A stretch of 32,000 bases of DNA from Nostoc punctiforme PCC 73102 (GTDB taxonomy: Bacteria; Cyanobacteriota; Cyanobacteriia; Cyanobacteriales; Nostocaceae). Below, piece after piece: positions 8,770 through 32,000 of the stretch. The translations under genes and the position numbers were made by a program. The notes beneath the pieces were generated by a model. The model was given only the letters and a program-made list of their open reading frames with translations. It did no database searches and was not told where the DNA came from. The stretch lies in the NCBI RefSeq assembly GCF_000020025.1, contig NC_010628.1, positions 7,500,001 to 7,532,000 on the forward strand, written 5' to 3'. Position 1 is the stretch's first letter; each line of letters begins with the position of its first letter.

Positions 8770-8928
8770 AATCAGTGGTTCTTGGGGTCATTCCCCAGTG
8801 TAGCAGTACTGATAAATCTGTTGTCTTGTATTTAATCGCCAGCAACCTTTCTGTTGATAGAGGCTAAGAGCCTTCTAGTCATTTTATAAGTTACTTATAA
8901 TACTATCTGACTAAAGTCACACATCCTT

Positions 8929-9348: not shown

Positions 9349-9405
9349 GGGCATTGGGCATGGGGCATTGGGAAATGAAAAGTCTTCCTAGTCCCCAGTC
9401 CCCAG
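9349..9405. repeat. Heptamer tandem repeats: GGCATTG-type x3 and CCCCAGT (STRR1-type) x2.
   Basis: gggcattgggcatggggcattggg at 9349..9372 and agtccccagtccccag at 9390..9405. The second array encodes the last codons (GTGD*) of the amylase ORF. Confidence 0.85.
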
Positions 9406-15379: not shown

Positions 15380-15384
15380 TTGAA

Positions 15385-15480
15385 GAGGCAGAGGAGCAGG
15401 GGGACAGGGAGGATAAGGGGAGAATTATTCAACTTTCTCCCTTGTCTCCCCCCTCTTCCTTGTCTCCTATGTCTCTTCTC
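15385..15480. repeat. GGGGAGAA/CTCCC-rich imperfect inverted repeat directly after the gshA stop. It is a Nostoc-type dispersed repeat and a probable terminator.
   Basis: ggggacagggaggataaggggagaa ... ttctcccttgtctccccc. A related module lies inside the debranching-enzyme gene at about 22463..22537. Confidence 0.6.
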
Positions 15481-15754
15481 CATGCCCCATACCCAATGGT
15501 AGATTTCTTTGGAGATAGTACTAGCCCTAAAATACACAAGTGATTAATCTTTCTACATAAAACTTAATATTTACCAATTTTAGCCAAATATCCTCTCAGG
15601 GATTGCTCTGGGAGGGTTTGTGCTATTGTTTTAAAAATCTAATCGATGGATGATGCTTGATTATTATTAACAAAACCTATGAATAGGCTCTACCCTTTGG
15701 TAGATTTAACATTGACAATAAATTGTTTTATACAATACGTAGATTATACGGACA

Positions 15755-16216
15755 ATGCCCCAGGTCGTTTTAGTTAACCCACAAATTCCTCCTAATACAG
15801 GTAATATTGCTCGTACTTGTGCAGCAACAGGTACAGAATTGCATTTGGTAGGGCCCTTGGGGTTTGAAATTAGCGATCGCTACCTCAAAAGAGCCGGTTT
15901 GGATTACTGGCCTTATGTCAAACTCCACTATCACGAATCCCTAGAAGCCTTTAAAACCGTACATCAAGAGCGTGGAGGCAGATGGTTGGGTTATACCGTT
16001 GGTGGTAATTTTAGTTACGTCAGCTTTCGATATCAAGCCGATGATTGGCTACTATTTGGTAGTGAAACTACGGGCTTACCACCAACAATTTTGTCAGATT
16101 GCGATGCTACTCTGTATATTCCCATGAGCCAACCAGGGGTTCGCAGCTTGAACTTGTCAGTCAGTGTGGCAATTGGCTTATTTGAAACCCGTCGTCAGTT
16201 AGGCTATCTACAATAG
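15755..16216 (+). CDS. trmL: tRNA (cytidine/uridine-2'-O)-methyltransferase TrmL (SpoU family).
   Basis: 153 aa. VVLVNPQIPPNTGNIARTCAATGTELHLVGPLGF and LNLSVSVAIGLFE are SPOUT knot motifs. Confidence 0.85.
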   Translation: MPQVVLVNPQIPPNTGNIARTCAATGTELHLVGPLGFEISDRYLKRAGLDYWPYVKLHYHESLEAFKTVHQERGGRWLGYTVGGNFSYVSFRYQADDWLLFGSETTGLPPTILSDCDATLYIPMSQPGVRSLNLSVSVAIGLFETRRQLGYLQ

Positions 16217-16944
16217 TTGTTTACCTTCACTAGATAAGTATATTTACTTATTAACTCTAAAAAAATCTATCTAAACTGGAGAATTTTGGTAGCAAGATTT
16301 TTTTGTTTACGGCAAAATATGTAAAAGAATATACCAAATCCTGGGTTTATTCGCCAATTGTAGTGGAAGATACTTACAAAGAGAGGAAGGTTATTATAAG
16401 AAATTTATATATAAAACTTGAGATAATGCCAAATTTGAATGATAGATTTTGATGAATTTGAAGCATCCTAAATCGGGAACAAAAACGCTAAAATCCAGTC
16501 ATGTTATGTATTTAAGCTGTTTTTGCTCGATGAACTCCAAAAAGCAGCCTAAAATTAGACGATAGTTAATACGGTTGTTTTTTAGGGAATAATCAACGTA
16601 AAGTCTCGTGTTGAGAAGACTGATGGGCTAGAAATATCTTGAAGATATCTACAGCAGGGGGCATCACTTTTCCAGAAGTCGCAGCAATTTATTTTTCGGC
16701 AGCGACTATAGACTAGGCAAATCATTTGTCTAGTCCCCGTGATTGACGCAAGACAAGCGCGGATAATGGTAAAGAGTTATAAACGTCCTAAGTGGTGTTA
16801 GGAGTGGTTCGGACAAGTAAACACAGCAAACTTTAAGTTTTGCTAATACATGTAAACTTGTCTAAATCAGAGAAGCAGGTTAATCTTGCGTAAGCATCTC
16901 TGGTGAATGTGATCTTGATCTATCATTTGTTGTGATCTAAATCA

Positions 16945-19347: not shown

Positions 19348-19388
19348 TTTCTTGGCTATCTGTAACTAAATCATTGCCTTGCTTTGTT

Positions 19389-19411
19389 GAGGGAGTTTAC
19401 CTCCCTCTTTT
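19389..19411 (+). terminator. Rho-independent terminator after the M23 gene.
   Basis: Stem gagggag, loop tttac, stem ctccctc, then tttt. Confidence 0.65.
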
Positions 19412-19514
19412 GCCTTTTATAACCTTAACAGGGATAAAAGCTGTAAGAAAATTGCAAAAATCCTAGTATTGAGCAAATTTGTATGCTATACTAGTTTATG
19501 ATTTGAAGATATAT

Positions 19515-19588
19515 GGCTCAGTAGCTCAGTTGGTTAGAGCGCGGGACTCATAAGCCTGAGGTCGTTGGTTCAATTCCAACCTGAGCCA
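19515..19588 (+). tRNA. tRNA with anticodon CAT. It is either tRNA-Met or a lysidine-type tRNA-Ile2, which cannot be distinguished by eye.
   Basis: GGCTCAG TA GCTC AGTTGGTTA GAGC G CGGGA CTCATAA GCCTG AGGTC GTTGG TTCAATT CCAAC CTGAGCC A. There is one A:G mismatch at the bottom of the anticodon stem. Confidence 0.88.
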
Positions 19589-19792
19589 CTTTAAAAGAAG
19601 GATTATATAAGGGTTTCAGCTTCTAGTCATCTGTAGCATTAGGGAGCTGAATTTTAATATAAGGCTCTTTTAACTATCAAATGACTATGCTTATTTAAGA
19701 ACGTGATAGCCATGAAAGTTTGAATTGAAGCCTTGAAAGGTCGTTTAAGATGAAGATTCCCTAGACTTTTGTTCAATGGTAATCAGAAATAC

Positions 19793-20115
19793 TTATCTTT
19801 GAACTTTATCCTGATCCTGTTGGATTTGCTCGGCTCGGTCTTGGGCAATTCTGGTGATATTAGGCTGAGTTGAGAACCAGTAACCAGTGTTATCGACATA
19901 AAGATAGATGTGTGGGCTGTTCGGTAAGTCGGCGCAAAGCATCGCCAAAAGTTGCTGCACTTTCCCCTGGTTGAACACACCCCAACTTGATCTGATGATC
20001 TTCTACACCGCGATTGGCTGCTCTTAGAGTAGGAGCAGAACCAAGGTAAAATTGTCCGGGCGACACGACGACATGCAGAGTAACGTCCTAAGTTCGGGTT
20101 TTGGCGATCGCACAA
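19793..20115 (-). pseudogene. Frameshifted remnant of an unidentified gene.
   Basis: Three overlapping partial frames, for example DVTLHVVVSPGQFYLGSAPTLRAANRGVEDHQIKLG... and ...FNQGKVQQLLAMLCADLPNSPHIYLYVDNTGYWF... No single frame is intact. Confidence 0.35.
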
Positions 20116-20259
20116 AGTCGAGCCTCTGAGGATTTCTGCTAAGGAGTTAGTTTAGTACTGTGATTGCTCTCACCAAAAGCATCCCTTTTTACTTGGATAA
20201 CTAGCTATCCAATAAAGTAGTCAGACTTAAGAGCGAATACTCTGACAAAATTGCGATGT

Positions 20260-20345
20260 CTACGATGGTCACTGAGCTTGTCGTACCCCTCCGGGGAAGC
20301 AAGCTACGCGCAGCGTCTCGTAGAGAAGTGCGGGCTACGCCTACG
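20260..20345. repeat. Small dispersed repeat modules (Nostoc SDR/MITE-like).
   Basis: cactgagcttgtcg (20270..20283) recurs at 23147..23160. cgcgcagcgtctcgtagagaag (20307..20328) recurs inverted at 23025..23046 with one mismatch. GCTACGCC motifs also occur. Confidence 0.7.
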
Positions 20346-20430
20346 CACCAAAAAACAATCAGCAAATGAAGTAAACCTGTAGCAGTTATTCTAGAGAAAA
20401 CTAGAGTTTTGAAATTTTGGTATATTTGAG

Positions 20431-20817
20431 CTACCCAAAATCATCAGAGAATAATGGCACATCATAAAATTTCAACTTTTGGTCTACTGTAATTATTGTT
20501 AAACCTTCTACCAAAGCTTGAGCAATTAACATCCTATCAAAAGGATCTTTATGGTGTAGAGGCAAATCAGCAACCTTTATTCCATGTGTCAATGTCATAG
20601 ACAAAATCTCAAACCGACTGAAGCGCAAAGCCTCCTCCAAATTACCAGGAGAAATTAACTTTCCTAAAGACTGTTTAATTGAAATCTCCCAAGCACTAAT
20701 TGCACTGACGAAAATTAAATTTTCAGGATTAGTAATTACTTCTCGTACCCGATCTGACAATTTAGAATCATTTTCTAAAAACCACAATAAAATATGAGTA
20801 TCTAACAAAAAACTCAC
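20431..20817 (-). CDS. vapC: PIN-domain toxin, VapC family.
   Basis: 128 aa. The N-terminal LLDTHILLW carries the acidic residue, and the remainder shows the PIN pattern. A 1-nt overlap links it to the upstream antitoxin gene. Confidence 0.85.
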   Translation of the reverse strand: MSFLLDTHILLWFLENDSKLSDRVREVITNPENLIFVSAISAWEISIKQSLGKLISPGNLEEALRFSRFEILSMTLTHGIKVADLPLHHKDPFDRMLIAQALVEGLTIITVDQKLKFYDVPLFSDDFG

Positions 20818-21095
20818 TACTCATCCCCATAAAATGCTGCAATTACTTCTTCTGGAGTCTCATCAAAATCATCAGCAATCTTAACTTTTCCCTGCCAAAA
20901 ACCCGCAACTCTTGGCTTTAAGGCATCATTTAAATCAGCTTTACTAACTGTAGGCTCAGGTTGAGTCAAAGGCAAAACTTTTGCCAAAGGGACACCCTGA
21001 TGAGTTAAGGTAACTTCAACATGATTTTGGATATCTGACAATAAATCAGCTAAATTCTCAGATAAGTCAGCAATATCAAAAGTTTTTGGTGACAT
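20817..21095 (-). CDS. Type II antitoxin partner of VapC (Phd/YefM-like N-terminus).
   Basis: 92 aa, acidic, sitting immediately upstream of vapC and overlapping it. The C-terminal GKVKIADDFDETPEEVIAAFYG is a common antitoxin tail. Confidence 0.7.
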   Translation of the reverse strand: MSPKTFDIADLSENLADLLSDIQNHVEVTLTHQGVPLAKVLPLTQPEPTVSKADLNDALKPRVAGFWQGKVKIADDFDETPEEVIAAFYGDE

Positions 21096-21289
21096 TTTAC
21101 TTATGCCCTACTGATTACCAGCATTATAACCAATAAAATTTACCCTCATTGAAGATGAAATTAAATAGTATTGGACGATGAATAATGATTAAAAAATATG
21201 AAAAGTGTAATCGTTAACACGGTAAATAATTGTTTAAAAACGGCTCAGTTCCCTGTTGCCACAACTCCAGCCAATCATAAAATTACGAA

Positions 21290-23518
21290 TTATTTTTGTA
21301 TGTGGCGAATTATTTCAGCAACTGACCAAGCTTGAGCGATCGCACCTCTGGGTGTATGAGGTGCATCGCCATCAAATATCTCAGAAATAGAGCCAAGACA
21401 AGCGCCAGATAAGAAATGATCTAGCAGAGGTTGCCAATCAAAAGGTAGCGATTGTTCTGGATAAAAACGTTGCCAAGCCCGAATATATGGTCCAATTAGC
21501 CAACCCCAAACAGTGCCTTGGTGATAGGCGCGATCGCGTTGCTCTTGATTACCCTCATATCTCCCTTTGTATTCGGGATCTCCTGGATCGAGACTGCGAA
21601 GACCATAAGGAGTCAGCAAGCTGATAGTTGCCAAATCTAGTATCTGACTCCCTTGTTGGGCAGAAAATCCACAGTGGTGCAGTGACAGCGCCAAAACCGC
21701 ATTGGGACGAATTTGAAAATTTCGGCGATCGTCTGGCTCGATAGTATCGTACAAATAACCCAGCTGAGGATTCCAGAACTTTTGCAGCGAGGTTTTAACC
21801 TTTTCTGCTTGCAGAGCATAACGCTGTGCTTGCTTAGTGAGACGCACTGGATCGCCAAGTTCAAGCGAACTTAAGCGTTCTGCCCACCGACTTAGCCAAC
21901 ATAAAGCTGAATACCATAGCGCATTGATTTCCACCGGCTTACCGTGACGTGGAGTAACGGGATTTGCCCCAATTACCACATCCATCCATGTGAGAGCTAC
22001 ACCACGAGCATCCCAACTAATTAGCCCATCAATAGCATCAACCTGGATATTGTAGTGTGTACCACCAACAAAGGCTTTGTGGATTTGTTGGACTACAGAG
22101 AATTGCTCTGCCAAAAATTCCCAGTCTTGGGTAGCTTCTAAATAAAGTCCTAAAGTTTCAACCCACCACAGCGCCGCATCAATACTGTTATAAAGTGGTT
22201 CACCATCGGCATCAGGAAATACATTAGGCATCAAACCGTGGCGATAGTAATGCCTAAAAGTCCGTAATACTCCTTTTGCCAGATCAAAGCGTTGTGGAAC
22301 TAGTGCCAATCCAGGTAAGGCGATTAATATGTCGCGCCCTCGCTCATTAAACCAGTGATAACCAGCAATCATTGTGGGGCCAGCAATTGAGGCTCGATAG
22401 ACGATAAACTGATCGCTTGCTTTAAGTAGTTGTTGCCAGAGTAGAGATTGGGCATTTAAAAGAGGCACAGGGGCGGGATGCGGGGGGTAGAGGGGAAAAC
22501 TCTTCTCCCTTGCTCCCTGCTCCCTGCTCTCCTCACTCCATCCAAAAATCTGGGAGAGCCGGTCTTGCTCTACCTCCACGGCTTCTGCAAAGGTTTCGGA
22601 AGTGAGAACATCTGCCATCAAGTTTGGAAAACCTACTCGTGCTTCTAGTGTTACCACATCTCCTGGTTGCAGTCTGACTATCAAGTAACCAGGACTGTAG
22701 AGGTCTTCTTTGTCACTTAATCCCCGTTTTGTCTCCTCAGACAATCCATAATTCCAATACCAAACTGCATCTGGTTGATATTTTCCTTTTGTCCAACGCA
22801 AGTGCCAAGGTATACCGAAATTACCCAATTTTTTTGCTTGCAGACAGATTTGCTGTTGCCCAAGCAATTCTGAGAACTGTAATCCTGAACTAGCAATTTG
22901 TGGGTGGTGAAAATCACGTTCTGCGATCAGCAGCCGCAGCCGTAAAATTGCTGTATCATTTCCGTCATAGCGATATTGGATCAAGATTCGATGGCAAAAT
23001 TGGGCATTGGGGAGGCAGTGCGGTCTTCTCTGCGAGACGCTGCGCGATGGGGTCTCCCCAAGTGGAGCAACTGCCGTCATTGGGCATTGGGAAGCATTCT
23101 TCGCTATTTCCAGTTCCTCATTCCTAATCCCCAGTCTCCAGCGATGCACTGAGCTTGTCGAAGTGTCCCCAGCCTCCACTAACCCATAAGGCATCACCAA
23201 TTGTCTGCTTAATTGCCAGTTATCTCGACCCCAAATCCATTTTGGAACTGGGTTAATATCAAAACAGCGCAACAGTTCGTAGCCTGTCAGTTCAATCTGA
23301 CCGTTACCCCAAACATTTGTCCCCAGTGCTACAACGTTCCCCGATACTTCTAAGCTAGCGTCTAAGTGTGAAAACAGCAGAGTCCGTCCAGAAGGTGGGT
23401 TTGTAGCGGTAAACAGCCAACCGTGATAGGTGCGCGTGCGGACATCAGAAATCGTACCACTGGCAAAACTTCCTAAGCCATTGGTAAGTAACCATTCTCT
23501 TGTATCTAAATCAGGCAT
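21290..23518 (-). CDS. Glycogen debranching enzyme (amylo-alpha-1,6-glucosidase, GDE N and C domains) carrying two repeat-derived in-frame insertions.
   Basis: 742 aa. N-terminus REWLLTNGLGSFASGTISDVRTRTYHGWL. The C-terminal half has PNVFPD, NSIDAALWW, LTWMD and YHQGTVWGW, motifs typical of the (alpha/alpha)6 GDE_C domain. Confidence 0.88.
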   Translation of the reverse strand: MPDLDTREWLLTNGLGSFASGTISDVRTRTYHGWLFTATNPPSGRTLLFSHLDASLEVSGNVVALGTNVWGNGQIELTGYELLRCFDINPVPKWIWGRDNWQLSRQLVMPYGLVEAGDTSTSSVHRWRLGIRNEELEIAKNASQCPMTAVAPLGETPSRSVSQRRPHCLPNAQFCHRILIQYRYDGNDTAILRLRLLIAERDFHHPQIASSGLQFSELLGQQQICLQAKKLGNFGIPWHLRWTKGKYQPDAVWYWNYGLSEETKRGLSDKEDLYSPGYLIVRLQPGDVVTLEARVGFPNLMADVLTSETFAEAVEVEQDRLSQIFGWSEESREQGAREKSFPLYPPHPAPVPLLNAQSLLWQQLLKASDQFIVYRASIAGPTMIAGYHWFNERGRDILIALPGLALVPQRFDLAKGVLRTFRHYYRHGLMPNVFPDADGEPLYNSIDAALWWVETLGLYLEATQDWEFLAEQFSVVQQIHKAFVGGTHYNIQVDAIDGLISWDARGVALTWMDVVIGANPVTPRHGKPVEINALWYSALCWLSRWAERLSSLELGDPVRLTKQAQRYALQAEKVKTSLQKFWNPQLGYLYDTIEPDDRRNFQIRPNAVLALSLHHCGFSAQQGSQILDLATISLLTPYGLRSLDPGDPEYKGRYEGNQEQRDRAYHQGTVWGWLIGPYIRAWQRFYPEQSLPFDWQPLLDHFLSGACLGSISEIFDGDAPHTPRGAIAQAWSVAEIIRHIQK
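22463..22537. repeat. Repeat-derived in-frame segment within the debranching-enzyme CDS (approximate limits).
   Basis: ggggggtagaggggaaaactcttctcccttgctccctgctccctgc encodes ...EESREQGAREKSFPLYPPHPAP... It belongs to the same sequence class as the 15385..15480 intergenic repeat. Confidence 0.5.
22994..23179. repeat. Repeat-derived in-frame segment of about 186 bp within the debranching-enzyme CDS (approximate limits).
   Basis: It contains CATTGGG heptamers and modules shared with 20270..20328. It encodes the low-complexity peptide VEAGDTSTSSVHRWRLGIRNEELEIAKNASQCPMTAVAPLGETPSRSVSQRRPHCLPNAQF. Confidence 0.6.
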
Positions 23519-23649
23519 TGGCTACTCAAAATCGTTATGAGTATGATATAGTCGTAACAGATCGTAATTAAACTGTGAGAGCGTGGATGGGCGAGTTTTA
23601 CTTGACCCGTATTTCAACGCTAATAAACCGATAAAGGAGAATTAGGTTA

Positions 23650-24261
23650 ATGTCCCTTACTTACGGAACCGAAGGAAGCCTCCGCGTTGGCCAACAAGCT
23701 CCCGATTTCACAGCAACGGCTGTGGTAGATCAGGAATTTAAGACAATTAAACTTTCCGATTATCGCGGTAAGTATGTCGTCCTGTTTTTCTACCCACTAG
23801 ACTTTACCTTTGTTTGTCCTACTGAAATCACAGCATTTAGCGATCGCTACGAAGAATTCAAGAAAATCAATACTGAAGTCCTTGGGGCTTCCGTTGACAG
23901 TGAATTCTCCCACCTCGCTTGGATTCAAACAGATCGTAAGTCTGGTGGTGTCGGCGACCTGAATTATCCTCTAGTCTCAGACATTAAGAAAGAGATTAGC
24001 GCCGCTTACAACGTTCTTGACCCAGCAGCCGGCATTGCCTTGCGTGGTCTGTTCCTCATCGATAAAGATGGTATCATACAGCACGCTACCATCAACAACC
24101 TAGCTTTTGGTCGCAGCGTTGACGAAACCCTGCGGACATTACAAGCAATTCAGTATGTTCAATCTCACCCCGATGAAGTTTGCCCAGCTGGTTGGCAACC
24201 TGGTGACAAGACAATGAATCCTGACCCAGTGAAGTCTAAAGTTTACTTCTCTGCTGTCTAA
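23650..24261 (+). CDS. Typical 2-Cys peroxiredoxin (AhpC/Prx1 subfamily).
   Basis: Peroxidatic motif [10 protein letters not shown] and resolving-Cys motif EVCPAGW. Confidence 0.92.
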
Positions 24262-24315
24262 ATTTCGTTAGCAAACTCTAATCTAAGTTGTTGGAGTTGA
24301 GAGCAAAATCAATGA

Positions 24316-24380
24316 AAACCACAGATAAACAGAGATACACATGAAACAGTGTCAACCTCTGTATCTATCTGTGGTTTTTT
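24316..24380 (+). terminator. Long hairpin terminator after the peroxiredoxin gene.
   Basis: aaaaccacagata ... tatctgtggtttttt, with an inner stem cagag/ctctg. Confidence 0.7.
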
Positions 24381-24415
24381 CATAAAATAGTATTTAAATA
24401 ATTAGGGTTAAAAAT

Positions 24416-24952
24416 ATGTTGACTTCAACTGATTTTAGTGGCTTATTAAATGAGCGATTCTTCCGCAACTTTTTACCAGTTCCAGCTAGAAATCAGCTCA
24501 GGTTGGGAGTAGGAACACCTGATTTTCAACTGCCAGATATTACCAACGGAACTTTAGTAAAATTGTCTGATTATAAAGGCAAGCAACCAGTGTTACTCGC
24601 CTTTACCCGCATCTTTACTGAAAAACAATATTGCCCCTTTTGTTTTCCTCATATCAAAGCCTTGAATGAAAATTATGAGGAATTCAAAAATCGTGGTATA
24701 GAAGTTTTAATGATTACTAGTACTGATGAAGGGCAAAGCCAAATTGTTGTGAAAGATTTAGGCTTAAAAATGCCGTTATTGAGCGATCCTAGTTGTCGAG
24801 TTTTTCGTACCTATCAAGTAGGACAAGCACTAGGAGCGCCTTTACCAGCCCAGTTTGTATTAGATAAAGAAGGAAAACTCAGCTACTGGCATTTATTTTC
24901 TTTTCTGGATCGCAATGCTAGTATTGAGATTTTGTTAGAACAATTTAATTGA
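24416..24952 (+). CDS. AhpC/TSA (redoxin) family thioredoxin-fold protein.
   Basis: 178 aa. PVLLAFTRIFTEKQYCPFCFPH shows a CxxC-like active site in the Prx position. Confidence 0.7.
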   Translation: MLTSTDFSGLLNERFFRNFLPVPARNQLRLGVGTPDFQLPDITNGTLVKLSDYKGKQPVLLAFTRIFTEKQYCPFCFPHIKALNENYEEFKNRGIEVLMITSTDEGQSQIVVKDLGLKMPLLSDPSCRVFRTYQVGQALGAPLPAQFVLDKEGKLSYWHLFSFLDRNASIEILLEQFN

Positions 24953-25006
24953 GTATAAGGTGTAAAATTGGCAATGCTTACCCTACTGATAAAACTGTGA
25001 GGTTTT

Positions 25007-25675
25007 ATGGTGCTGACCCTTTATCATTCGCCTATTTCTCCTAACTCCCGCCGTGTTTGGATTACTCTTCTGGAAAAAGGGCTTGAATTTGAATTAGTAG
25101 ATATAAAGCTGGATGGGGAACAGTTTCAACCAGAGTTTTTGGCAATTAACCCATTTCATCACATACCAGCTTTGGTGGATGACGACTTTAATGTAGTGGA
25201 ATCTTTAGCAATCCTGGACTATTTAGAGGCAAAATATCCTACACCTGCGATGTTGCCTAAAGATGCTAAGGATTTAGCGATCGCACGGATGGTACAACTG
25301 GTAACTGTAAATGAGCTTTTGCCAGCAGCGACGACGTTTTTACCTCAGATATTAGGTTTGCCTGGAGCAGATCCAGAAAAAATCGAGAAGGCAAAGCATA
25401 AAATTGCCACAGTGCTGAAGTTTTTTGAAAATTTATTAGACGATCGCCCTTACTTTGCTAGTCACAACCTCACTCTCGCCGAAGTTGTGGCTGGAACTGT
25501 AGTAAATGTGCTGCCAAGTGTTGGCATTTTCTTAAGTGAATATCCAAAATTAAATGCTTGGCACGATCGCTTAATTGTACGTCCATCGTGGCAAGCTACC
25601 GAGTCTACACCAGAGGCAATGGAAGCGTTTAAGTCTGTCATTGTAGCGAGAAATACGCGGCAAACTCAGACCTAA
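25007..25675 (+). CDS. Glutathione S-transferase.
   Basis: N-terminal thioredoxin-like domain (LYHSPISPNSRRVWITLLEKG, IPALVDDDFNVVESLAILDYL) plus a helical C-domain. Confidence 0.85.
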   Translation: MVLTLYHSPISPNSRRVWITLLEKGLEFELVDIKLDGEQFQPEFLAINPFHHIPALVDDDFNVVESLAILDYLEAKYPTPAMLPKDAKDLAIARMVQLVTVNELLPAATTFLPQILGLPGADPEKIEKAKHKIATVLKFFENLLDDRPYFASHNLTLAEVVAGTVVNVLPSVGIFLSEYPKLNAWHDRLIVRPSWQATESTPEAMEAFKSVIVARNTRQTQT

Positions 25676-25681
25676 TCAATA

Positions 25682-25708
25682 TAGAAACGGTAAAATTTAC
25701 CGTTTCTA
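25682..25708. terminator. Bidirectional terminator palindrome between the GST and dnaJ-class genes.
   Basis: tagaaacggtaaa-a-tttaccgtttcta, a perfect 13-bp inverted repeat. Confidence 0.7.
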
Positions 25709-25724
25709 CAATAATCCGAAATTT

Positions 25725-26738
25725 TCACAGCTTGACTTGCTGCAAATGACTGCGGGGATTATAAGTACGTATAGCCCGGATTTTTTCATAATATTCTCGT
25801 TCTTGTTGGCTGAGGTCTTTTGGTGGTGCGATCGCCACCTTCACCAACTGATCGCCACGTCCACCCTTGGCGAGGGGCCAACCTTTGCCACGCAAACGCA
25901 GCGATTGGCCAGAACGCACTCCGGCTGGTAGCTTTACATTAACTGAACCATCGGGAGTGGGTACATCAATAGACGCCCCTAGAGTAGCTTCATCTGGTGT
26001 AATTGCTACTTCGCACACCAAGTTATCGCCTTCCATTTGAAAGAACGAGTGCGGCTGAAGTTCAACTTTTAAGTATAAATCTCCTCGTTGTTGAGTCATC
26101 GGGTTGATTTGACCTTTACCCCGCACGCGCAGACGAGTACCAGGTTTAGCCCCAGATGGGATACGAACATCAATTGTCTCGTTACCCAAACTAAAGCGCT
26201 TTTGCACGCCATTAAATGCTTCAGCAAAAGTTAGGGTGATTATAGCTTCACTATCCTGGGAAGTACCCGCACCTGGATCTTGAAACCCATAATCGTTAAA
26301 GCCACCAAAACCACTTGGCGCACCTGTAGGAGGGCGGTAAGAGTAACTTTGTGAGTAACTTTGTCGCCCACCTCCACCGCGAGGGGCAGCACCGCCAAAG
26401 CGCCCTAGCAACTCATTAATGAACTCATCAAAATTACCATATTGACTGAAGTCAAAGCCACCCATATCGGCACCAACGCCGCCGCCGGGGAAACCTTCAC
26501 CAGCTTGTTTCCAATATTGGCCGAATTGGTCATATTTTTTGCGTTTATCTACATCTGAAACAACCTCGTAGGCTTCGCTAACTTCTTTAAAGCGTGCCTC
26601 TGCCTGTTTGTTATTTGGGTTGACATCGGGGTGATATTTGCGGGCTAGTTTACGAAAGGCTTGTTTAATCTCATCCTGAGTGGCAGTCTTACTAACTCCC
26701 AAAATTGCGTAATAGTCTTTGAAGTCGGTTGCAGCCAT
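25725..26738 (-). CDS. DnaJ-class co-chaperone without a zinc-finger domain (type II / CbpA-like).
   Basis: J domain DYYAILGVSKTATQDEIKQAFRKLARKYHPDVN, a G/F-rich linker and C-terminal substrate-binding domains. No CxxCxGxG repeats. Confidence 0.85.
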   Translation of the reverse strand: MAATDFKDYYAILGVSKTATQDEIKQAFRKLARKYHPDVNPNNKQAEARFKEVSEAYEVVSDVDKRKKYDQFGQYWKQAGEGFPGGGVGADMGGFDFSQYGNFDEFINELLGRFGGAAPRGGGGRQSYSQSYSYRPPTGAPSGFGGFNDYGFQDPGAGTSQDSEAIITLTFAEAFNGVQKRFSLGNETIDVRIPSGAKPGTRLRVRGKGQINPMTQQRGDLYLKVELQPHSFFQMEGDNLVCEVAITPDEATLGASIDVPTPDGSVNVKLPAGVRSGQSLRLRGKGWPLAKGGRGDQLVKVAIAPPKDLSQQEREYYEKIRAIRTYNPRSHLQQVKL

Positions 26739-26856
26739 CTACTAGCCTCCTATAGAAATTACTGTTATGTTTTTTTTTAAGAACACAGATATTTAATTGC
26801 TAGGTAGAGTGCCAAGCAAAAGAATCTGATTTTAAATTAACAAAGAATATAGAAAA

Positions 26857-27387
26857 TCAAGTGTGGTTCTTGCTCAACGTGCGATCGCAATTTCCGTACT
26901 CCGATTTTTCTGATAAGCGGATCAGCCCGTCTAGTCCCTCTTCCAGGCTTGGGGGGGCATCCCGGAGTTGACGGTGCATTCGCAAAATAATTTCTTCAGG
27001 AACCTGGCGCGATCGCTTTTTATTCCATGCTAAACACAGCCAGACTGGTGTATCTACCCAAATTGCCGTAATTTGCCTAAAGCCCAGGTTACGTGCTACA
27101 GCAATGACTTCACGACGATGGCGGCGCTGGGCGTTAGTAGCATCGAAAATAGCTGTATTAGTTTTGGAAATAGCTTGCTGAAACTGCCGCTCAATTTCGT
27201 GCCAAATAAGCACCCACGGTCCCTGAAGGGCTTGGGAACCGAACAATTGCCCCCGGATGGCATCCGTAGAAATCAGCGACATCTGGGGGCATTCTACCAG
27301 TAATTTTTTTGCAAAAGTTGACTTACCGCTACCTGGAAGACCAATCAACAAAATGAGTTTAGTCATTTGTCCGTTGTCCTTTGTCAT
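26857..27387 (-). CDS. P-loop NTPase/kinase (AAA_33 / polynucleotide-kinase-like).
   Basis: Walker A GLPGSGKST. The alternative start ATG 27366 (MTKLILLIG) is more likely, because the first 7 codons are heptamer-repeat sequence. Confidence 0.75.
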   Translation of the reverse strand: MTKDNGQMTKLILLIGLPGSGKSTFAKKLLVECPQMSLISTDAIRGQLFGSQALQGPWVLIWHEIERQFQQAISKTNTAIFDATNAQRRHRREVIAVARNLGFRQITAIWVDTPVWLCLAWNKKRSRQVPEEIILRMHRQLRDAPPSLEEGLDGLIRLSEKSEYGNCDRTLSKNHT

Positions 27388-27444
27388 TTGTCCTTTGTTA
27401 CTTGTAACTATTAACCAATGACTAATGACTAATGACTAATGACT
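27363..27444. repeat. Two STRR-type heptamer arrays: (TCnTTTG)x6 at 27363..27404 and (AATGACT)x4 at 27417..27444.
   Basis: Seen directly. The arrays fill the glgC-kinase spacer and overlap the glgC stop codon (27443..27445) and the kinase 5' end. Confidence 0.9.
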
Positions 27445-28732
27445 AAATGATGGTTCCATCGGGAATTACAGCATTTTTCAACACGACAACGATGCCACTG
27501 CGGATATAGAAACCTTGGTTTTCGCGTTCAGCTTCTTGCACGTTATCTTTATTAACAATTTTGACATCGTGACCGATGCGCGCATTTTTATCGATGATAG
27601 CACCACGAATGATCGTGTCTGTACCGATACCTACGGGAATGTCATTTTCTATCAAGCTACATTGCCGTTCCACAGAAGCTTGGTAAAAATCTGCACCCAT
27701 GAGCAAAGATTCTTCAATGACGCAACCAGATTCAATTCGCGATCGCACTCCTAAAACTGAATGTTGAATGCGGCAATTTTTCAAAATACAACCTTCGCCA
27801 ATAATTGATTCTGTGATCTGGCAATCTAAAAGCTTAGTCGGAGGTAAGTAACGAGCGCGGGTATAAATTGGTGCGTGTTCATCATAGAAACTAAAGGGTG
27901 GCTGGGGCTGCTGAGTCAGGGCTAAATTGGCATGATAAAAAGCCTCAATTGTTCCAATATCTTCCCAGTAGTCATCAAAAAGGTAAGCTTGAACGTTGTA
28001 ATCTTTAGAGGCATCAGGAATAATTTCTTTACCAAAATCCGTCCGTTCTACAGATTCTCTCAACAACTTGAACAAAACCTCTTTTTTAAAGACATAAATC
28101 CCCATCGAAGCGATGTAAGGTTGTTTTTGGGCTTGTTCTTTTGTTAATCCCAGTACACTTGTATCAACTTGCATTTGGGTTAATGCTTCACCTTTGGGTT
28201 TTTCGCTAAAGTCAATTATCCTACCGGAGTCATCGATTTTCATCAAACCAAAATCTGAGGCACGGCGCTCGTCTATGGGGATAACTGAGAGAGTAATATC
28301 AGCTCCTGTATCTCTATGACGCTGGATAAACTGGCGATAATCCATGCGGTAGAGGTGATCGCCTGAGAGAATTAGATATTCTTCTACATCCCATTCCTCC
28401 ATTAACCACAGATACTGACGCACTGCATCTGCTGTACCTTGGAACCAGTTAGGGTTTTCTGGAGTTTGTTGTGCCGCTAGCACTTCCACAAACCCTTCGT
28501 TAAAGCCAGTAAAGTTATAGGTACGGGCGATGTGACGATTCAGAGAAGCTGAGTTGAATTGTGTCAGGACGTAGATTTTGAATATTTCGGAATTTATGCA
28601 GTTACTAACAGGGATATCGATTAAGCGGTACTTCCCCGCTACTGGTACTGCTGGTTTAGCGCGGAGTTTGGTTAATGGGTAAAGCCGAGTACCCGCGCCA
28701 CCGCCAAGGATGATTGATAATACTTTTTTCAC
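27443..28732 (-). CDS. glgC: Glucose-1-phosphate adenylyltransferase (ADP-glucose pyrophosphorylase).
   Basis: 429 aa. [49 protein letters not shown] and the C-terminal left-handed beta-helix region. GTG start. Confidence 0.95.
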
Positions 28733-29012
28733 AAAATTTCTCCCGACTGCCTTTCAACTCTCATCTTCAGTTTAGGACTGTCTGCCACCACAGGTAAGGG
28801 GGATCATGTGATTCTTAGGGATGAATTTTATAGAATGCTGTTGGTGATGGATAGTGCGGCTGATAAGTAAAAAGACTAGAACATTTGTATTATTTTAGGT
28901 GGGTGAACAATATAGAAAGTTTTGGCTACACTTCCCTTATATGGAATTTGAGTATCGCTTTTGCATTTAAATCGATATATAGGAATCATATTTGATTTCT
29001 GAAAAAACTTTA

Positions 29013-29062
29013 GTACAACTTGAAAAGCGTTCTTGCCTGTTGCCTGCCATCGCGCTTGCGCT
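29013..29062. repeat. Dispersed repeat copy B, the partner of 11018..11063, followed by GCTACGCC-type motifs.
   Basis: See copy A. It lies in the 400-bp spacer between the PLD-like gene and glgC. Confidence 0.7.
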
Positions 29063-29131
29063 ACACGCACTACGCCAATAAATATGGCTACGCCACGCTG
29101 TGCGAACAAAAATCAAAGCTGACTGCTATAG

Positions 29132-31042
29132 TTATCTATTTATTTTCTTTGATAAAGTATATTGCGAGATAAAATTATCAGGTGAATCACTGTTTTGGGC
29201 AATATTGAGACGTAGAAACTGCGCCCAGACTTCATCGCTAAGTAACTTTAAAGCAGTTTTAGGATTGTTAATTGCGATCGCACCGATAACTTTACGCCAT
29301 CCTTCCTGCAATGACTCAAGAAAAGCCTCTTCAATAGAAACTTGACTCAGCAACGAAAGTGCGGTTTTAAAACTTTCTGAATCAGCTTGTATATTCTTCG
29401 ACCTTAAACCTTGAAGTGTCACCTTTAACCACACAGGAAGAAGCTCTAGCCAATTGTTTTGCTGTATGTTTGTGAGTGCAATGTCTTCCATACCTAGCGC
29501 ACCCCATACATATAAAGACTCCACAGCCAGTTTAGAATCGCGGTTGTTTAGAGCATTTTGCCATAATTTTTGAGCTTGATTTTGGAAGCGATTAGCGAGA
29601 AATTCATAAGCTTCCTGGACTTTATGCAAAATTGTGACTTTATAAACTGATTCACCTCGTGGTAGGTAATCACCATGATAAGATAGCCAGTTATGAGATC
29701 CACAAAGATGGATTTCTCGATCAACTATTACTTCTTTTATATGGGAGTCTCCTAGCCATAAAACCTGTACAGATGATAAACCATCAGGTGTTTTTATTGC
29801 TCGCAGTTTTTTCTCTACTTCGGGCGAAATTGGTTTCTCTTCATCTTCTTGTCGCCGCACAATTCCATGTCCAATTAAAATCCAAACTCCACGATTAGCT
29901 AATTTTTGTAACAAAGTTAGAAATTTTTCATCGACAACTGCCTGATTCACCCAAGGAGAATAAATAATAACCTGACTTTTAGCAGAATTCAAAACTTCTG
30001 AGAAAGCTTGGCTAATTTGTCCATCGCGTAACTGTACAACTTCACCTACGACTGGAGAATTATCTACTTTTTTCCCAGGTTTTATCGCAGGTTTTAGTGC
30101 TTTTTGGCGAATATTTTCAAGTCTAACTTCTATTTCAGTATTTTTATATTTGAGAATGGCTTCACGTTCAAAATTAATGGTTTCGGTTGATAACTTACAT
30201 AATGCTTGCAAGGATATCTTCCCTTGAGCGTGTAGAGCTTCTAACCAATTTGATGCTGACTCTAAAATTTGTTTTCCATTTTTTATTTGGATGGTTAATT
30301 TATCTTCAATAGCATCGAAGATAACGAAAAGCGATATTTTTCTCCAAAATTTTTGAGTTGGATTTAATACCTTATAAGAAGTAACGATTTTTCCCTCTTC
30401 TGGGACATGAAGTGCTAAATCTGAAGCCTGAATACTTTTTTGGATTTCCTCAAGTTTTAAAGAAGAGATATCAGCAATTGCACGATCAATAGTTAAAAAG
30501 TCTGCCAAGTCTGGCAAATTGATCGCTGTCTCGCTTAGTGATTCAGCTTGAAAGGTTATTTTGTCACTTAAAGGGTCTGTAATAGCATTAAGCTGTACAG
30601 GATATGGGGGCTGTGGTACAGACCCTTTTTCATAAAATGAGCGACCTTCAGAAGTAACTGTAATTGGTGATGTTTCTGATAGAGTTTGTAATGAGCGAAG
30701 AGTTGCAGTAGTAGTTTTGATAAATACAGAATCCAGTCCAAGTACAGAGGCTAATTCATCCTCTGTTGGCGGAGGTTGAAATTCAATCGCAGCGCGGATA
30801 ATAAATTCTTCGAGTACGTTAAACTGACGGGGCTCTTTGATATTTACTTCTATAGTAGTTTGACGCAAACTATAACGAAATTGACGCGCTGCTAAAACTG
30901 ATAAACTAGGACTTTGCGCTTCTATTTCGTCTACAAAATTTTTGAGATTGTCATCAATAGGTTTAGCAGAAGAGGCGAGAAACATCAAGGGAATAAGATT
31001 GGATAATTGAATTTGTACAAATACTTGTAACCCATGAGGCAA
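29132..31042 (-). CDS. Orphan multidomain protein: a winged-helix-like N-region, a middle region of unknown fold, a single-HKD PLD-superfamily (Nuc/endonuclease-like) domain and a helical tail of about 150 aa.
   Basis: Perfect HxK(x)4D(x)6GSxN motif HIKEVIVDREIHLCGSHN at 29690..29743, verified on the DNA. The PLD-like N-strand VIIYSPWV is present. The ORF-track start is TTG 31042, and ATG 30985 is an alternative. Confidence 0.8.
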   Translation of the reverse strand: MPHGLQVFVQIQLSNLIPLMFLASSAKPIDDNLKNFVDEIEAQSPSLSVLAARQFRYSLRQTTIEVNIKEPRQFNVLEEFIIRAAIEFQPPPTEDELASVLGLDSVFIKTTTATLRSLQTLSETSPITVTSEGRSFYEKGSVPQPPYPVQLNAITDPLSDKITFQAESLSETAINLPDLADFLTIDRAIADISSLKLEEIQKSIQASDLALHVPEEGKIVTSYKVLNPTQKFWRKISLFVIFDAIEDKLTIQIKNGKQILESASNWLEALHAQGKISLQALCKLSTETINFEREAILKYKNTEIEVRLENIRQKALKPAIKPGKKVDNSPVVGEVVQLRDGQISQAFSEVLNSAKSQVIIYSPWVNQAVVDEKFLTLLQKLANRGVWILIGHGIVRRQEDEEKPISPEVEKKLRAIKTPDGLSSVQVLWLGDSHIKEVIVDREIHLCGSHNWLSYHGDYLPRGESVYKVTILHKVQEAYEFLANRFQNQAQKLWQNALNNRDSKLAVESLYVWGALGMEDIALTNIQQNNWLELLPVWLKVTLQGLRSKNIQADSESFKTALSLLSQVSIEEAFLESLQEGWRKVIGAIAINNPKTALKLLSDEVWAQFLRLNIAQNSDSPDNFISQYTLSKKINR

Positions 31043-31237
31043 AGTACCTTTATGCTTTCAATAAGCTTTGGCGGCGACTAGCCAACCAAGCAAATCCAGC
31101 ACTAGTGACAAATATTAGCACACCATATAATTTTCCCAGGAATGGTCATTGTGGGACTATTCAGCAGCGTAGGGGTAGCAGCGATCGCGATGGGAGCATC
31201 CACTTTTGGCAGAAACACTCAAATAGCAAGTAAACCA

Positions 31238-32000
31238 TTAAGATAAGCTTAAGCGTTCAGAGAGAATTTGGTTGACACTCTCAACATTCCACTGTGCACC
31301 AGAAATTTTAATCCTGGCTCCAATCTGTTTAATTGCCGACTCGACTGCACCAGAACCGATAGAACAGAGTTCTTCAGCCTGGTAATAGCTGTAGTTGACA
31401 ATACGAGAACGATGTTTGTTGAGATAAGTAATGAAATTTTTCACCTGTTTACCTCGGCAATGAATAAACAAAGCCTGAGTATTATCTATTTGACCTTGCC
31501 ACAAAAAACTTTCAGCAGCTTTAAGCCGTTTTAAAGAACCACCAATTTTATAGAGATTTTCTTTGAGGTGATACCAGTCTAAAATTTCCCAACGCTCAAA
31601 ATTCTCACTTTTACCAAATTCTCTGACAAGATTCCACACACCATCATGACCATCTCCTAAGCAGACTAACGGGTTAACCAGAGGCTGAATATTGACATAA
31701 TCAACTAATGATTGGTTGTCATCAAAAAACGCACCATAGTAAATCCCTTGTAGACGAACGGTTTTATAGTCTCGCCAGTGACAGCCTGCTTTCGGTTTAC
31801 CTCTAAGTCGGACTTTTCCTCCATCTACATTGACTTCTGACACGACTTGTAATGCTACGGGCAGTTGAAAATCTTGTTCGAGAACTAGTTTTTGTTGCGT
31901 CGTGTGACCAACTTTCACTCCTGTTAATGCCTCAATTTCGATTTCTGCTTTTTGGTATGAAACATTTGCTGATAGTCGCAAACAGCACTTTTGAAGTAAT
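31238..32000 (-). CDS. DDE transposase, ISKra4-like family. It is partial because the N-terminus lies beyond the window end.
   Basis: The frame stays open upstream of the ORF-track TTG (31981) to base 32000. Motifs VDGGKVRLR, LGDGHDGVWN, LDWYHLKENLYK and SIGSGAVESAIKQI...SGAQW match my recollection of cyanobacterial ISKra4-family transposases. Confidence 0.6.
   Translation of the reverse strand, partial: LLQKCCLRLSANVSYQKAEIEIEALTGVKVGHTTQQKLVLEQDFQLPVALQVVSEVNVDGGKVRLRGKPKAGCHWRDYKTVRLQGIYYGAFFDDNQSLVDYVNIQPLVNPLVCLGDGHDGVWNLVREFGKSENFERWEILDWYHLKENLYKIGGSLKRLKAAESFLWQGQIDNTQALFIHCRGKQVKNFITYLNKHRSRIVNYSYYQAEELCSIGSGAVESAIKQIGARIKISGAQWNVESVNQILSERLSLS

Follow-up and report, generated by a model that had tools for sequence, protein, structure and literature searches.

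Introduction

Endonucleases of the Nuc/NucT/Zucchini type, which are single-HKD PLD proteins, act on nucleic acids as homodimers. Mokosh, which was described in 2022 and is already modelled in PADLOC and DefenseFinder, protects E. coli from phages, a defence that is lost when either the helicase ATP-binding site or the PLD active site is mutated; these mutation results cover three active systems, with the types not separated (bioRxiv 10.1101/2022.05.11.491447). The founding description of type I Mokosh mentions a serine-threonine kinase domain in the helicase MkoA (bioRxiv 10.1101/2022.05.11.491447). The domains found in Mokosh have parallels in MOV10L1 and PLD6 of the piRNA pathway (10.1101/2022.12.12.520048), and the purification of type I Mokosh proteins was unsuccessful in one survey (10.1101/2025.07.10.664194).

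We analyzed a gene near the end of a window of 32,000 nucleotides from Nostoc punctiforme PCC 73102, which a preliminary description had presented as an orphan. We found that this gene belongs to Mokosh. It is likely to be mkoB, the PLD nuclease subunit of a chromosomal type I Mokosh-like two-gene system in Nostocales that consists of the MkoA helicase and the MkoB nuclease.

Reading frame and family identity of mkoB

As previously described, positions 29132..31042 of the minus strand formed one unbroken open reading frame, but the length of 636 residues assigned to its product did not hold. The 636-aa version, which starts at TTG 31042, is probably an over-extension. Homologs aligned only from residue 20 of this reading, and the DNA upstream of ATG 30985 corresponded to the end of mkoA in most orthologous loci; the conserved ATG was therefore taken as the start.

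29132..30985, minus strand: mkoB coding sequence, 617 aa plus stop codon from the conserved ATG 30985

An exact look-up of the 617-aa PCC 73102 protein returned no record. The PADLOC MkoB profile PDLC03922 matched the protein with an E-value of 2e-28 and 98 bits, with residues 62-461 corresponding to profile positions 15-421 of 610 (the PADLOC models show no curated cut-off), and this match bore out the suspected membership in an anti-phage family. The same profile was matched by all 43 of the 43 diverse family members, the best of which reached 7e-37, while the scores of the PCC 73102 protein on other profiles were 3.5e-11 for the PLD part of MkoC and 5e-4 for DrmC. Because the PADLOC scores were moderate and the last 175 residues lay outside the MkoB profile match, we assigned the protein to a divergent MkoB subfamily.

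Overall architecture of MkoB

The AlphaFold2 (AF2) model of MkoB, with a pLDDT of 91, contained a winged helix, a β-rich domain, a single-HKD PLD domain and a helical tail, which were distributed over the gene as follows.

30626..30985, minus strand: N-terminal module, part 1 (residues 1-120), with a helix, a long β-hairpin (28-54) and a winged helix (~57-120); AF2 pLDDT >90
30086..30625, minus strand: N-terminal module, part 2, β-rich at 121-240 and followed by a helical linker at 241-300; from the AF2 secondary structure and pLDDT
29630..30040, minus strand: single-HKD PLD nuclease domain (residues 316-452); Pfam PLDc_2, 26 bits, and Foldseek
29690..29743, minus strand: HKD catalytic motif HIKEVIVDREIHLCGSHN, from the translation; its HxK(x4)D part, HIKEVIVD, at 29720..29743
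29135..29629, minus strand: C-terminal all-helical tail (residues 453-617); AF2 helices 453-616, pLDDT ~95

The winged helix, which had been proposed from the sequence alone, carried the pattern LEEFxLRA...LGLD..F...T..G..FY and was recovered by two comparisons. Foldseek superposed 65-75 of its residues on the DNA-binding domains of MarR, DtxR and CggR with an rmsd of ~2 Å (prob ~1.0, E 0.07-0.3), and a profile search revealed weak MarR matches (E 0.03). Additionally, E59, D85, F88 and G114 of the N-terminal module were invariant or almost so in the family alignment. Beyond the winged helix, Foldseek found no fold match for this module in the PDB or BFVD, and the stretch of unmatched fold that had been noticed before the PLD domain corresponds to the β-rich and helical segments of part 2. 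The helical C-terminal tail was likewise present as described, with a poorly conserved sequence in the alignment.

The PLD domain fell slightly short of the Pfam PLDc_2 gathering score (26 bits against 27), and its best folds in Foldseek were NucT (6ehi, TM 0.69), Nuc (1byr, 0.68) and Zucchini (4ggk, 0.57), all target-normalised; PLD6 and PLD3/4 were also among the best matches. We found the HKD signature exactly where it had been reported. Its residues are H415, K417, D422, G429, S430 and N432 in the 617-residue numbering, the first three being H434, K436 and D441 in the 636-residue numbering. Among the 43 family members, D422 and G429 were invariant, and H415, K417, S430 and N432 were conserved in at least 90%. 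Each chain contained one HKD copy, in agreement with the earlier reading, as evident from the single PLDc_2 stretch and the single PLD domain of the model. MkoB is thus supported as a PLD-fold protein that carries a single HKD and belongs to the nuclease branch.

An assignment as a two-HKD enzyme (cardiolipin/phosphatidylserine synthase or PLD) was rejected on the same single PLDc_2 stretch and PLD domain. The structures of Pss, PLD1 and PLD2 aligned only to the single PLD domain of MkoB with low TM values in Foldseek, and the homologs were not the two-HKD phospholipid enzymes that, according to the preliminary description, would have overturned its reading.

The partner helicase MkoA

The claim that the gene stands alone turned out to be an effect of the window edge and an insertion sequence (IS), which together hid the partner. 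In PCC 73102, mkoA (ACC84380.1, 1491 aa) is intact, and its end lies past the window edge, 2,183 bp upstream from the ATG of mkoB. We compared the best 80 loci from a 14-sequence alignment scan, almost all of them from Nostoc and with the other 124 matching species left out. With few exceptions, the ~80 Nostocales loci encoded an MkoA helicase of ~1,490 residues upstream of mkoB on the same strand, as did two cyanobacterial plasmids. The end of the helicase gene overlapped the mkoB start in 51 of the Nostocales loci, often by ~20 nt. Nearly all loci with sufficient upstream sequence had a same-strand MkoA-type helicase within ~10 kb of mkoB; five loci (L038, L061, L067, L079 and L090) had none within the upstream sequence examined. 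The pairing extended to MkoB relatives of only 19-21% identity, in which an AAA_11/AAA_12 helicase gene lay immediately upstream and overlapped the mkoB relative. The plasmid copies of mkoA and mkoB overlapped by 23 nt, and one of them adjoined hsdR, toxin-antitoxin genes and xerD.

The MkoA ortholog of strain UO1 matched PADLOC MkoA at 2.7e-114 (two MkoA models of differing length exist), the Pfam families AAA_11 and AAA_12, and an IGHMBP2-family model at 232 bits, as an SF1 helicase. It also contained an IF2_N domain, and no Pfam kinase family was matched at E <= 0.01. The kinase domain mentioned for type I MkoA may have diverged or be optional.

Many Nostoc genomes had two helicase paralogs upstream of mkoB. 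The two, A' and A, were 52-58% identical in their N-terminal parts, compared with 82-93% identity for MkoB. A helicase that is duplicated and strongly diverged from genome to genome, beside a stable MkoB, is a pattern typical of an immune sensor.

The N-terminal module in DarT fusions

We also observed the MkoB N-terminal module in another setting, fused to DarT behind an MkoA-like helicase in helicase-coupled cassettes. The fusion proteins share residues 1-255 of MkoB, and a sister cassette was found nested inside BREX loci. With the module joined to a different effector behind the same kind of helicase, these relatives argue that the first ~255 residues of MkoB serve as the module for helicase coupling or for the substrate, and that the PLD domain is an effector open to replacement. 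The module could even be a general adaptor, through which MkoA-type helicases drive interchangeable effectors, either PLD or DarT. The DarT-fused relatives thus yield a directly testable statement on the construction of Mokosh.

Genomic setting and selection

The position of mkoB was conserved across Nostoc, among housekeeping genes and outside any defence island, which is atypical for a defence gene. Downstream of mkoB, glgC was present only in the N. punctiforme clade, and a GCS2 gene took its place in the remaining loci; a strict synteny with glgC across Nostocales, which had been raised as an objection to a defence role, was thus not observed. The neighbourhood analysis proposed earlier revealed the upstream helicase, but it revealed neither a defence island at the Nostoc locus nor a methyltransferase partner; in the orthologous loci, no methyltransferase or other self-protection gene was found near mkoB. 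The 399-bp spacer towards glgC had been called repeat-filled, a description that we could not confirm: the only repeats in it were a weak direct pair of 17 nt and two inverted pairs, both imperfect, all of the short kind with two copies that often arises by chance. The HIP1 site at 29274 was present within mkoB as described.

Compared with 13 orthologs, mkoB showed a dN/dS of 0.2-0.3 in every domain, which indicates purifying selection. It was AT-rich compared with the neighbouring genes; GC3 was 0.25 in mkoB and 0.28 in mkoA against 0.36-0.47 in the housekeeping neighbours.

These features raise the alternative that the pair is a domesticated housekeeping module, in which an Upf1-like helicase and a Zucchini-like nuclease have been kept vertically for RNA surveillance or decay or for an anti-transposon role. 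The targets of such a chromosomally fixed module would be transcripts of the cell itself or of IS elements, and it would not (only) be a phage-triggered defence but a bacterial counterpart of the MOV10L1/Zucchini step of the piRNA pathway; it would have been kept in the IS-rich Nostoc genomes, with duplicated, diverging helicases giving the specificity. The gene order fits this alternative: virtually every one of the 80 best loci, which range from Nostoc to Scytonema, Cylindrospermum and Atlanticothrix, has mkoA upstream and either GCS2 or glgC downstream. It is also in line with the identities, which follow those of the neighbouring genes, the purifying selection, the housekeeping nature of the adjoining genes, the IF2_N domain in MkoA and the parallel with MOV10L1 and PLD6 (10.1101/2022.12.12.520048). 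However, family members also occurred on conjugative or mobilizable plasmids beside restriction and toxin-antitoxin genes, the sister cassette was nested in BREX loci, mkoA and mkoB were compositionally foreign (GC3 0.25-0.28), and a highly divergent, duplicated helicase with a stable MkoB is as for an immune sensor. A vertically inherited defence system remains compatible with all of these observations, and we consider the domesticated module unlikely.

The ISKra4 insertion between mkoA and mkoB

The PCC 73102 locus was rebuilt from same-strain Logan contigs carrying mkoA, which joined the window through a 19-nt exact overlap, and was compared with the IS-free locus of UO1. Two features were defined upstream of mkoB.

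30986..31191, minus strand: mkoB upstream region, common to IS-free relatives (alignment with L015, L016, L093 and L011)
31192..32000, minus strand: ISKra4-family element, right 809 bp of 1,172 bp, continuing past the window end (NCBIfam; Logan contig reconstruction)

The neighbouring transposase is ISKra4-like, as had been proposed, with 211.3 bits against a cut-off of 205 for NCBIfam transpos_ISKra4 (NF033572). It is split over two frames, with a 63-aa orfA outside the window and orfB at 31238..31981. The element carries the terminal inverted repeat GGGAGCATCCA(G/C)TTTTGG and is flanked by a target-site duplication of 9-10 bp, the right copy of which, ATCGCGATC(G), occupies 31182..31191, overlapping a HIP1 site. 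The insertion is clean; it lies 206 bp upstream of mkoB, between mkoA and mkoB, and is strain-specific, being absent in UO1, C110 and other close relatives. The upstream region itself carries a 3'-end remnant of an SBF-type transporter gene (tblastn).

We rejected the loss of a partner gene to the IS, which the preliminary description had asked to be checked. Both IS ends and the target duplication were present, the flanks were collinear with IS-free UO1, and mkoA was intact.

In the N. punctiforme clade, a spacer of ~1 kb separates mkoA from mkoB even without the IS, so translational coupling was lost before the IS came. Since mkoB is not translationally coupled to mkoA in PCC 73102, its expression would depend on a promoter of its own or on read-through out of the IS. 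No promoter-like site lay between the IS end at 31192 and the mkoB start in a consensus scan, whose total over 28650-31300 equalled chance expectation; a signal scan found terminator-like sites at chance level only, and an Rfam scan of 28000-32000 gave nothing credible.

The insertion could thus have disabled the system in PCC 73102 by depriving mkoB of its promoter or of read-through from mkoA, leaving the gene silent and heading for decay. This is suggested by the strain-specific element inside the short upstream region and by the lack of a promoter-like site in a scan whose total was at chance level. Both reading frames are intact, however, and the transposase lies on the mkoB strand, so that mkoB could be transcribed by read-through or from an outward promoter; dN/dS is uninformative either way for so recent an insertion. 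We regard a disabled system as quite unlikely.

Proposed mechanism and significance

The PLD nuclease, winged helix and defence family of the preliminary description were retained, while its single-gene or restriction-like system gave way to a two-gene helicase-nuclease pair. It is very unlikely that MkoB acts alone as a DNA-targeting, restriction-like nuclease with its winged helix for DNA recognition and a dispensable helicase: although MkoB has its own winged helix and its gene, in many Nostoc including the N. punctiforme clade, is intact and constrained despite a distance of 1-5 kb to the nearest helicase gene, an MkoA-type helicase lies within ~10 kb in nearly all loci with enough upstream sequence, the genes overlap in distant relatives and on plasmids, no methyltransferase or self-protection gene is nearby, and helicase ATP-binding-site mutations abolished defence in the founding experiments (bioRxiv 10.1101/2022.05.11.491447).

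In the two-gene Mokosh-like system that we favour, MkoA, an ATP-driven helicase of the Upf1/IGHMBP2 type, would engage phage-derived nucleic acid, and MkoB, working with MkoA, would cut it at a composite active site. As in Nuc and Zucchini, the two single-HKD domains of an MkoB homodimer would form this site and act by way of a phosphohistidine intermediate. The N-terminal module of ~255 residues, with its winged helix and β-rich domain, would most likely couple the effector to the helicase or to its substrate.

For type I Mokosh, this cyanobacterial subfamily, well folded (pLDDT 91) and sampled in depth, provides comparative data and another source of protein. Additionally, the positionally conserved Nostoc locus, in which a conserved nuclease is accompanied by one or two fast-diverging helicases, is a natural experiment on which subunit has the specificity. 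For annotation, the lesson is that a two-gene system can pass for an orphan when an IS and a window edge intervene.

Comparison with known systems

In TrmB-family regulators, the C-terminal domain is a sensing domain that is not known to be catalytic. TrmBL2 (5bqt) shares with MkoB the order of an N-terminal winged helix, a linker and a domain of PLD-like fold, and it ranked sixth in Foldseek over 239 columns; the rmsd of 18.6 Å indicated that the domains are arranged differently. The resemblance is an architectural lead and not evidence of membership.

DrmC of DISARM is also a single-HKD PLD protein in a helicase-containing defence system. An assignment to DrmC was rejected, as NCBIfam DISARM_DrmC_I gave 16.8 bits against a cut-off of 133 and the PADLOC score was only 5e-4. 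DrmC lacks the MkoB-type N-terminal module, and no DrmA, DrmB or methyltransferase gene was found near mkoB in the orthologous loci.

MkoB resembles Nuc, NucT and Zucchini (PLD6, MitoPLD) in having one HKD per chain, in its PLD fold (TM 0.57-0.69, target-normalised) and in the catalytic H, K, D, G, S and N residues, which are conserved in the MkoB family. In contrast, those proteins are single-domain enzymes of ~150-200 aa with 14-17% identity to MkoB, which adds an N-terminal module of ~300 aa, a helical tail of ~165 aa and a helicase partner gene.

The closest system is type I Mokosh (MkoA and MkoB; Millman et al. 2022), from which the Nostoc locus differs in several respects. The Nostoc pair represents a divergent subfamily from cyanobacteria whose E-values are moderate, the profile leaves the helical tail of MkoB unmatched, and MkoA has IF2_N but no kinase domain that Pfam can detect. 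The locus shows vertical conservation in Nostoc and not a patchy distribution, many Nostoc have two helicase paralogs upstream, and in PCC 73102 the IS and spacer place 2.18 kb between the genes. The overall design is the same: two genes on the same strand, the first for a large SF1 Upf1-like AAA_11/AAA_12 helicase and the second for a protein of ~600 aa with one HKD PLD domain. Both Nostoc proteins match the PADLOC MkoA and MkoB profiles, and in MkoB the alignment (profile positions 15-421) extends beyond the PLD domain into the N-terminal region.

Family identity and start codon of MkoB

The PADLOC search revealed that the window protein matched the MkoB profile with an E-value of 2e-28 over residues 62-461 of a 636-aa reading; on the profile, the aligned stretch runs from position 15 to position 421 of 610 and so takes in the N-terminal region as well as the PLD domain. 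Weaker PADLOC matches were found to MkoC, at its PLD end (3.5e-11), and to DrmC (5e-4). In Pfam, only PLDc_2 was detected, below threshold (26 bits versus a gathering score of 27). Two candidate identities were rejected by NCBIfam: DrmC scored 16.8 bits versus a cut-off of 133, and the NucT family score was far under its threshold. The family is of moderate to large size, with 836 clusters (50% identity) at E <= 0.001 and 104 at E <= 1e-30. All 43 diverse full-length members that we aligned, 19-52% identical to the query, matched the PADLOC MkoB model; in this alignment, D422 and G429 were invariant, and H415, K417, S430 and N432 were at least 90% conserved. The gene belongs to type I Mokosh, of which it is a divergent cyanobacterial representative, and its partner lies just beyond the window edge. 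In a few full-length members (P0211, P0174 and P0189; alignment columns about 540-560), the HKD motif lacked its catalytic H or K, with variants such as ...LYGQDVVLD..., ...RQGRDVLVD... and ...QYSKDVIID...; these proteins may be catalytically dead MkoB.

The ORF was found to be uninterrupted as described, with 636 codons counted from TTG, and the translation of its HKD segment gave exactly the expected sequence:

29132-31042, minus strand: open reading frame containing mkoB
29690-29743, minus strand: HKD segment, HIKEVIVDREIHLCGSHN
30985, minus strand: conserved ATG

The window protein was 100% identical to one of 617 aa from Nostoc punctiforme PCC 73102. Because relatives found among 1.84 billion representatives begin, with their own residue 1, opposite residue 20 of the 636-aa reading, and because in most orthologous loci the DNA 5' of the ATG at 30985 belongs to the end of another gene, the predicted conserved start is this ATG, which gives 617 aa and not 636; residues are numbered here on the 617-aa protein unless the 636-aa reading is named, the latter numbers being higher by 19. 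The 399-bp spacer towards glgC, previously called repeat-filled, contained no repeats beyond a weak direct pair and two inverted pairs, both imperfect. Its GC-rich part (29040-29100) showed reiterated short motifs, CGCTTGCGCTACACGCACTACGCC ... GGCTACGCCACGCTGTGCG, adjoined by a weak terminator-like hairpin at 29084-29096 on the minus strand.

Predicted structure of MkoB

The AlphaFold2 model of MkoB, built on the 43-member alignment, was confident, with a mean pLDDT of 91.1 and a pTM of 0.58, and was divided into the following components:

residues 12-24: helix
residues 28-54: long beta-hairpin
residues 57-120: three-helix bundle and wing
residues 122-236: beta-rich domain
residues 242-300: helical linker
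residues 316-452: alpha/beta PLD domain
residues 453-616: all-helical tail

A second model, of residues 1-312 alone, had a pLDDT of 85.7. Foldseek matched the N-terminal half to the DNA-binding domains of MarR, DtxR/IdeR/MntR and CggR over 65-75 residues at about 2 Å rmsd, with probabilities of about 1.0 and weak E-values (0.07-0.3), and the BFVD search revealed the same kind of winged-helix match. A sequence-profile search with the N-terminal region gave MarR at E 0.03, and weak HTH_Crp_2 matches were present in four family members. The proposed winged helix is thus supported by the models at the level of fold. In the fold libraries searched, neither the beta-rich domain nor the helical tail had a match.

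The helicase partner across the family

We found a helicase partner upstream of mkoB across the family. In Nostoc sphaeroides, the ortholog begins within the final part of a gene for a large AAA_11/AAA_12 helicase. Nostoc sp. C110 and also N. punctiforme UO1, whose MkoB proteins are 95-97% identical to that of the window, encode a 1,493-aa helicase on the mkoB strand, some 1-2 kb further upstream. This helicase contained IF2_N, a split AAA_11 and AAA_12 (Pfam) and matched PADLOC MkoA at 2.7e-114 and the IGHMBP2-family helicase model at 232 bits. A scan of the genome collection identified a relative in 204 species, and the best 80 loci were examined, nearly all from Nostoc and the others from Atlanticothrix, Cylindrospermum, Scytonema and Stigonema. 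A same-strand upstream helicase was detected by tblastn in nearly all of these 80 that had enough upstream sequence; its end lay about 17 nt inside mkoB in 51 of the 80, and an SBF-type transporter gene, or its remnant, was located between the two genes in others. Relatives with 21% and 19% identity followed an AAA_11/AAA_12 helicase (1,264 and 1,325 aa) by 13-17 nt. The two genes overlapped by 23 nt on a conjugative plasmid of Aulosira laxa and on plasmid pCHL69-1 of Cyanobacterium sp. HL-69, where the pair adjoins hsdR, two toxin-antitoxin pairs and xerD.

In many Nostoc genomes (loci L019, L022, L023, L039, L043, L081 and others; positions about 1-10017), two MkoA-type helicases were present upstream of one mkoB. 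Paralog A shared about 90% identity with the C110 protein; for paralog A', which overlaps mkoB, identity was only 52-58% over the first ~780 residues and 63-86% at the C-terminus, with no alignment at all for residues ~783-900. The layouts differed by genome (A-SBF-A'-mkoB, A-mkoB or A-SBF-mkoB), and this divergence and variation suggest that the paralogs have recombined and that a specificity region has diverged fast.

DarT-fused relatives of the N-terminal module

A tblastn search against plasmids matched the first 255 residues of MkoB to the N-terminus of a 531-aa protein on plasmid pC052_C of Nostoc sp. C052 (34% identity, BLASTP 6e-37), the C-terminal half of which is a DarT ssDNA ADP-ribosyltransferase domain. 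An MkoA-like helicase gene (PADLOC MkoA 2.7e-106) overlapped the fusion gene by 17 nt upstream, an ADP-ribosylglycohydrolase gene followed, and the trio was flanked by pglX and pglZ within a BREX-1 locus. The same three-gene cassette was found inside a BREX locus in Anabaenopsis elenkinii and adjoining HicA in an Oscillatoriaceae genome.

Loci with the helicase / N-module-DarT / ADP-ribosylglycohydrolase cassette
L104, 3277-10025: Nostoc sp. C052 plasmid pC052_C
L105, 3906-11037: Anabaenopsis elenkinii
L106, 4235-10877

About eight clusters of full-length DarT fusions were identified, cyanobacterial wherever the source was named. The cassette appears to be a Mokosh-type system in which DarT has taken the place of the PLD effector; no description of it was found in the Mokosh literature searched. 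The N-module thus stays with the helicase as the effector is exchanged, which places the MkoB family firmly in defence contexts. The sequence features first noted are real, and the preliminary description of a defence-related PLD nuclease with a winged helix holds.

Selection, gene order and composition

Comparison of the window mkoB with 13 orthologs gave overall dN/dS values of 0.21-0.31 (Nei-Gojobori), low both with and without an overlapping helicase, and the gene is under constraint in all its parts: 51 of 52 domain-by-ortholog values were below 0.45, the exception being the C-terminal tail versus the ortholog at L017 (0.50). Among the loci examined, the conserved order was mkoA upstream and a GCS2 gene downstream of mkoB; in most Nostoc genomes, genes for a SpoU methylase and a LysM-M23 peptidase came next after GCS2. 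The N. punctiforme clade has glgC downstream in place of GCS2. In the window, GCS2 is located at 14240 in the opposite orientation, and the block from GCS2 to glgC (14240-28732) appears to have been inverted in this clade, bringing glgC beside mkoB. Between the LysM-M23 peptidase gene and that of the glycogen debranching enzyme, a 128-aa PIN-domain ORF (20431-20817, minus strand; Pfam PIN 4.9e-18) of low GC content (0.336) possibly encodes a VapC-type toxin.

MkoB identity dropped along with that of its neighbors but faster (in Scytonema, MkoB 70%, MkoA 75% and GCS2 79%), which fits vertical descent with faster evolution. Both mkoB (GC 0.369, GC3 0.249) and mkoA (0.379, 0.278) had a far higher AT content than the housekeeping genes around them (GC3 0.36-0.47). 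The HIP1 octamer reported at 29274 was present; the window holds 20 such sites versus a chance expectation of 0.1, and their density in mkoB (~0.54 per kb) was near the window average (0.63 per kb). The gene is an old resident whose composition still looks like that of accessory DNA. The conserved position, the housekeeping neighbors and the IF2_N domain of the helicase would also suit a housekeeping or anti-transposon module, a reading that we regard as unlikely: the occurrence on plasmids and near BREX and restriction genes, the foreign composition and the duplicated, fast-diverging helicase all speak against it.

The mkoA gene and the IS insertion in PCC 73102

The defence pair was also found in the strain itself. 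Protein ACC84380.1 of N. punctiforme PCC 73102 (1,491 aa) is grouped with the UO1 helicase in a cluster at 90% identity, and the locus was rebuilt from sequencing-run contigs encoding exactly this protein, one of which shares run SRR8435132 with an mkoB contig. These contigs contained mkoA, then 805 bp matching UO1, then foreign sequence. Such a contig ends in 19 nt that, when reverse-complemented, equal the final 19 nt of the window. The joined order was the mkoA stop, 805 bp, a 1,172-bp element, 206 bp and the mkoB ATG, which would place mkoA about 1.2-5.6 kb past the window end:

30986-31191: remnant of the last ~75 codons of an SBF-type transporter gene, complete and directly upstream of mkoB in other Nostoc
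31192-32000 and beyond (locus L096, 14153-14534): IS of the ISKra4 family

The adjoining transposase was ISKra4-like as proposed (NCBIfam ISKra4, 211 bits versus a cut-off of 205). The element, only 1,172 bp long with inverted ends of about 18-20 bp, encoded its transposase in two frames, a 63-aa orfA ending at a stop and orfB continuing in another frame, which reflects either a programmed frameshift or a defect. Because the element has inverted ends, GGGAGCATCCA(G/C)TTTTGG, has on either side a 9-10 bp duplication, ATCGCGATC(G), of a sequence that is single-copy in UO1, and has both flanks collinear with UO1 at 96-98% identity, the IS is, on this comparison, a simple insertion with nothing deleted. 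The target duplication was located in tandem HIP1-like sequence (GCGATCGCGATCG). The concern that the insertion had cost a partner gene thus proved unfounded, mkoA lying beyond the IS. Silencing of mkoB by the IS in PCC 73102 seems rather improbable. With a family-wide helicase partner and the strain's own mkoA just past the window, the gene is not a novel orphan single-gene system, and a stand-alone MkoB nuclease, which the uncoupled mkoA/mkoB layouts would fit, is very doubtful.

Comparison with known systems

[quoted passage not shown] In a 2025 survey, type I proteins could not be purified, and type II Mokosh, found to be a monomer, gave defence against a single ssDNA phage only (10.1101/2025.07.10.664194). 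By analogy with Nuc and Zucchini, MkoB may dimerise via its single-HKD domain; it would cleave nucleic acid unwound or presented by MkoA, with the N-terminal module coupling it to the helicase or to the substrate. A conserved Nostoc locus with variable helicases, together with relatives in which the effector is swapped for DarT, says something testable about how Mokosh is built.

Upon Foldseek comparison with the PDB, the nearest folds to the MkoB PLD domain were NucT, Nuc and Zucchini/PLD6 (TM 0.69, 0.68 and 0.57), along with FAM83-type PLD-like domains and PLD3/4, whereas the alignment of two-HKD enzymes was limited to the one PLD domain of MkoB. The pair of Mokosh domains has a parallel in the piRNA pathway, in MOV10L1 and PLD6/Zucchini (10.1101/2022.12.12.520048).
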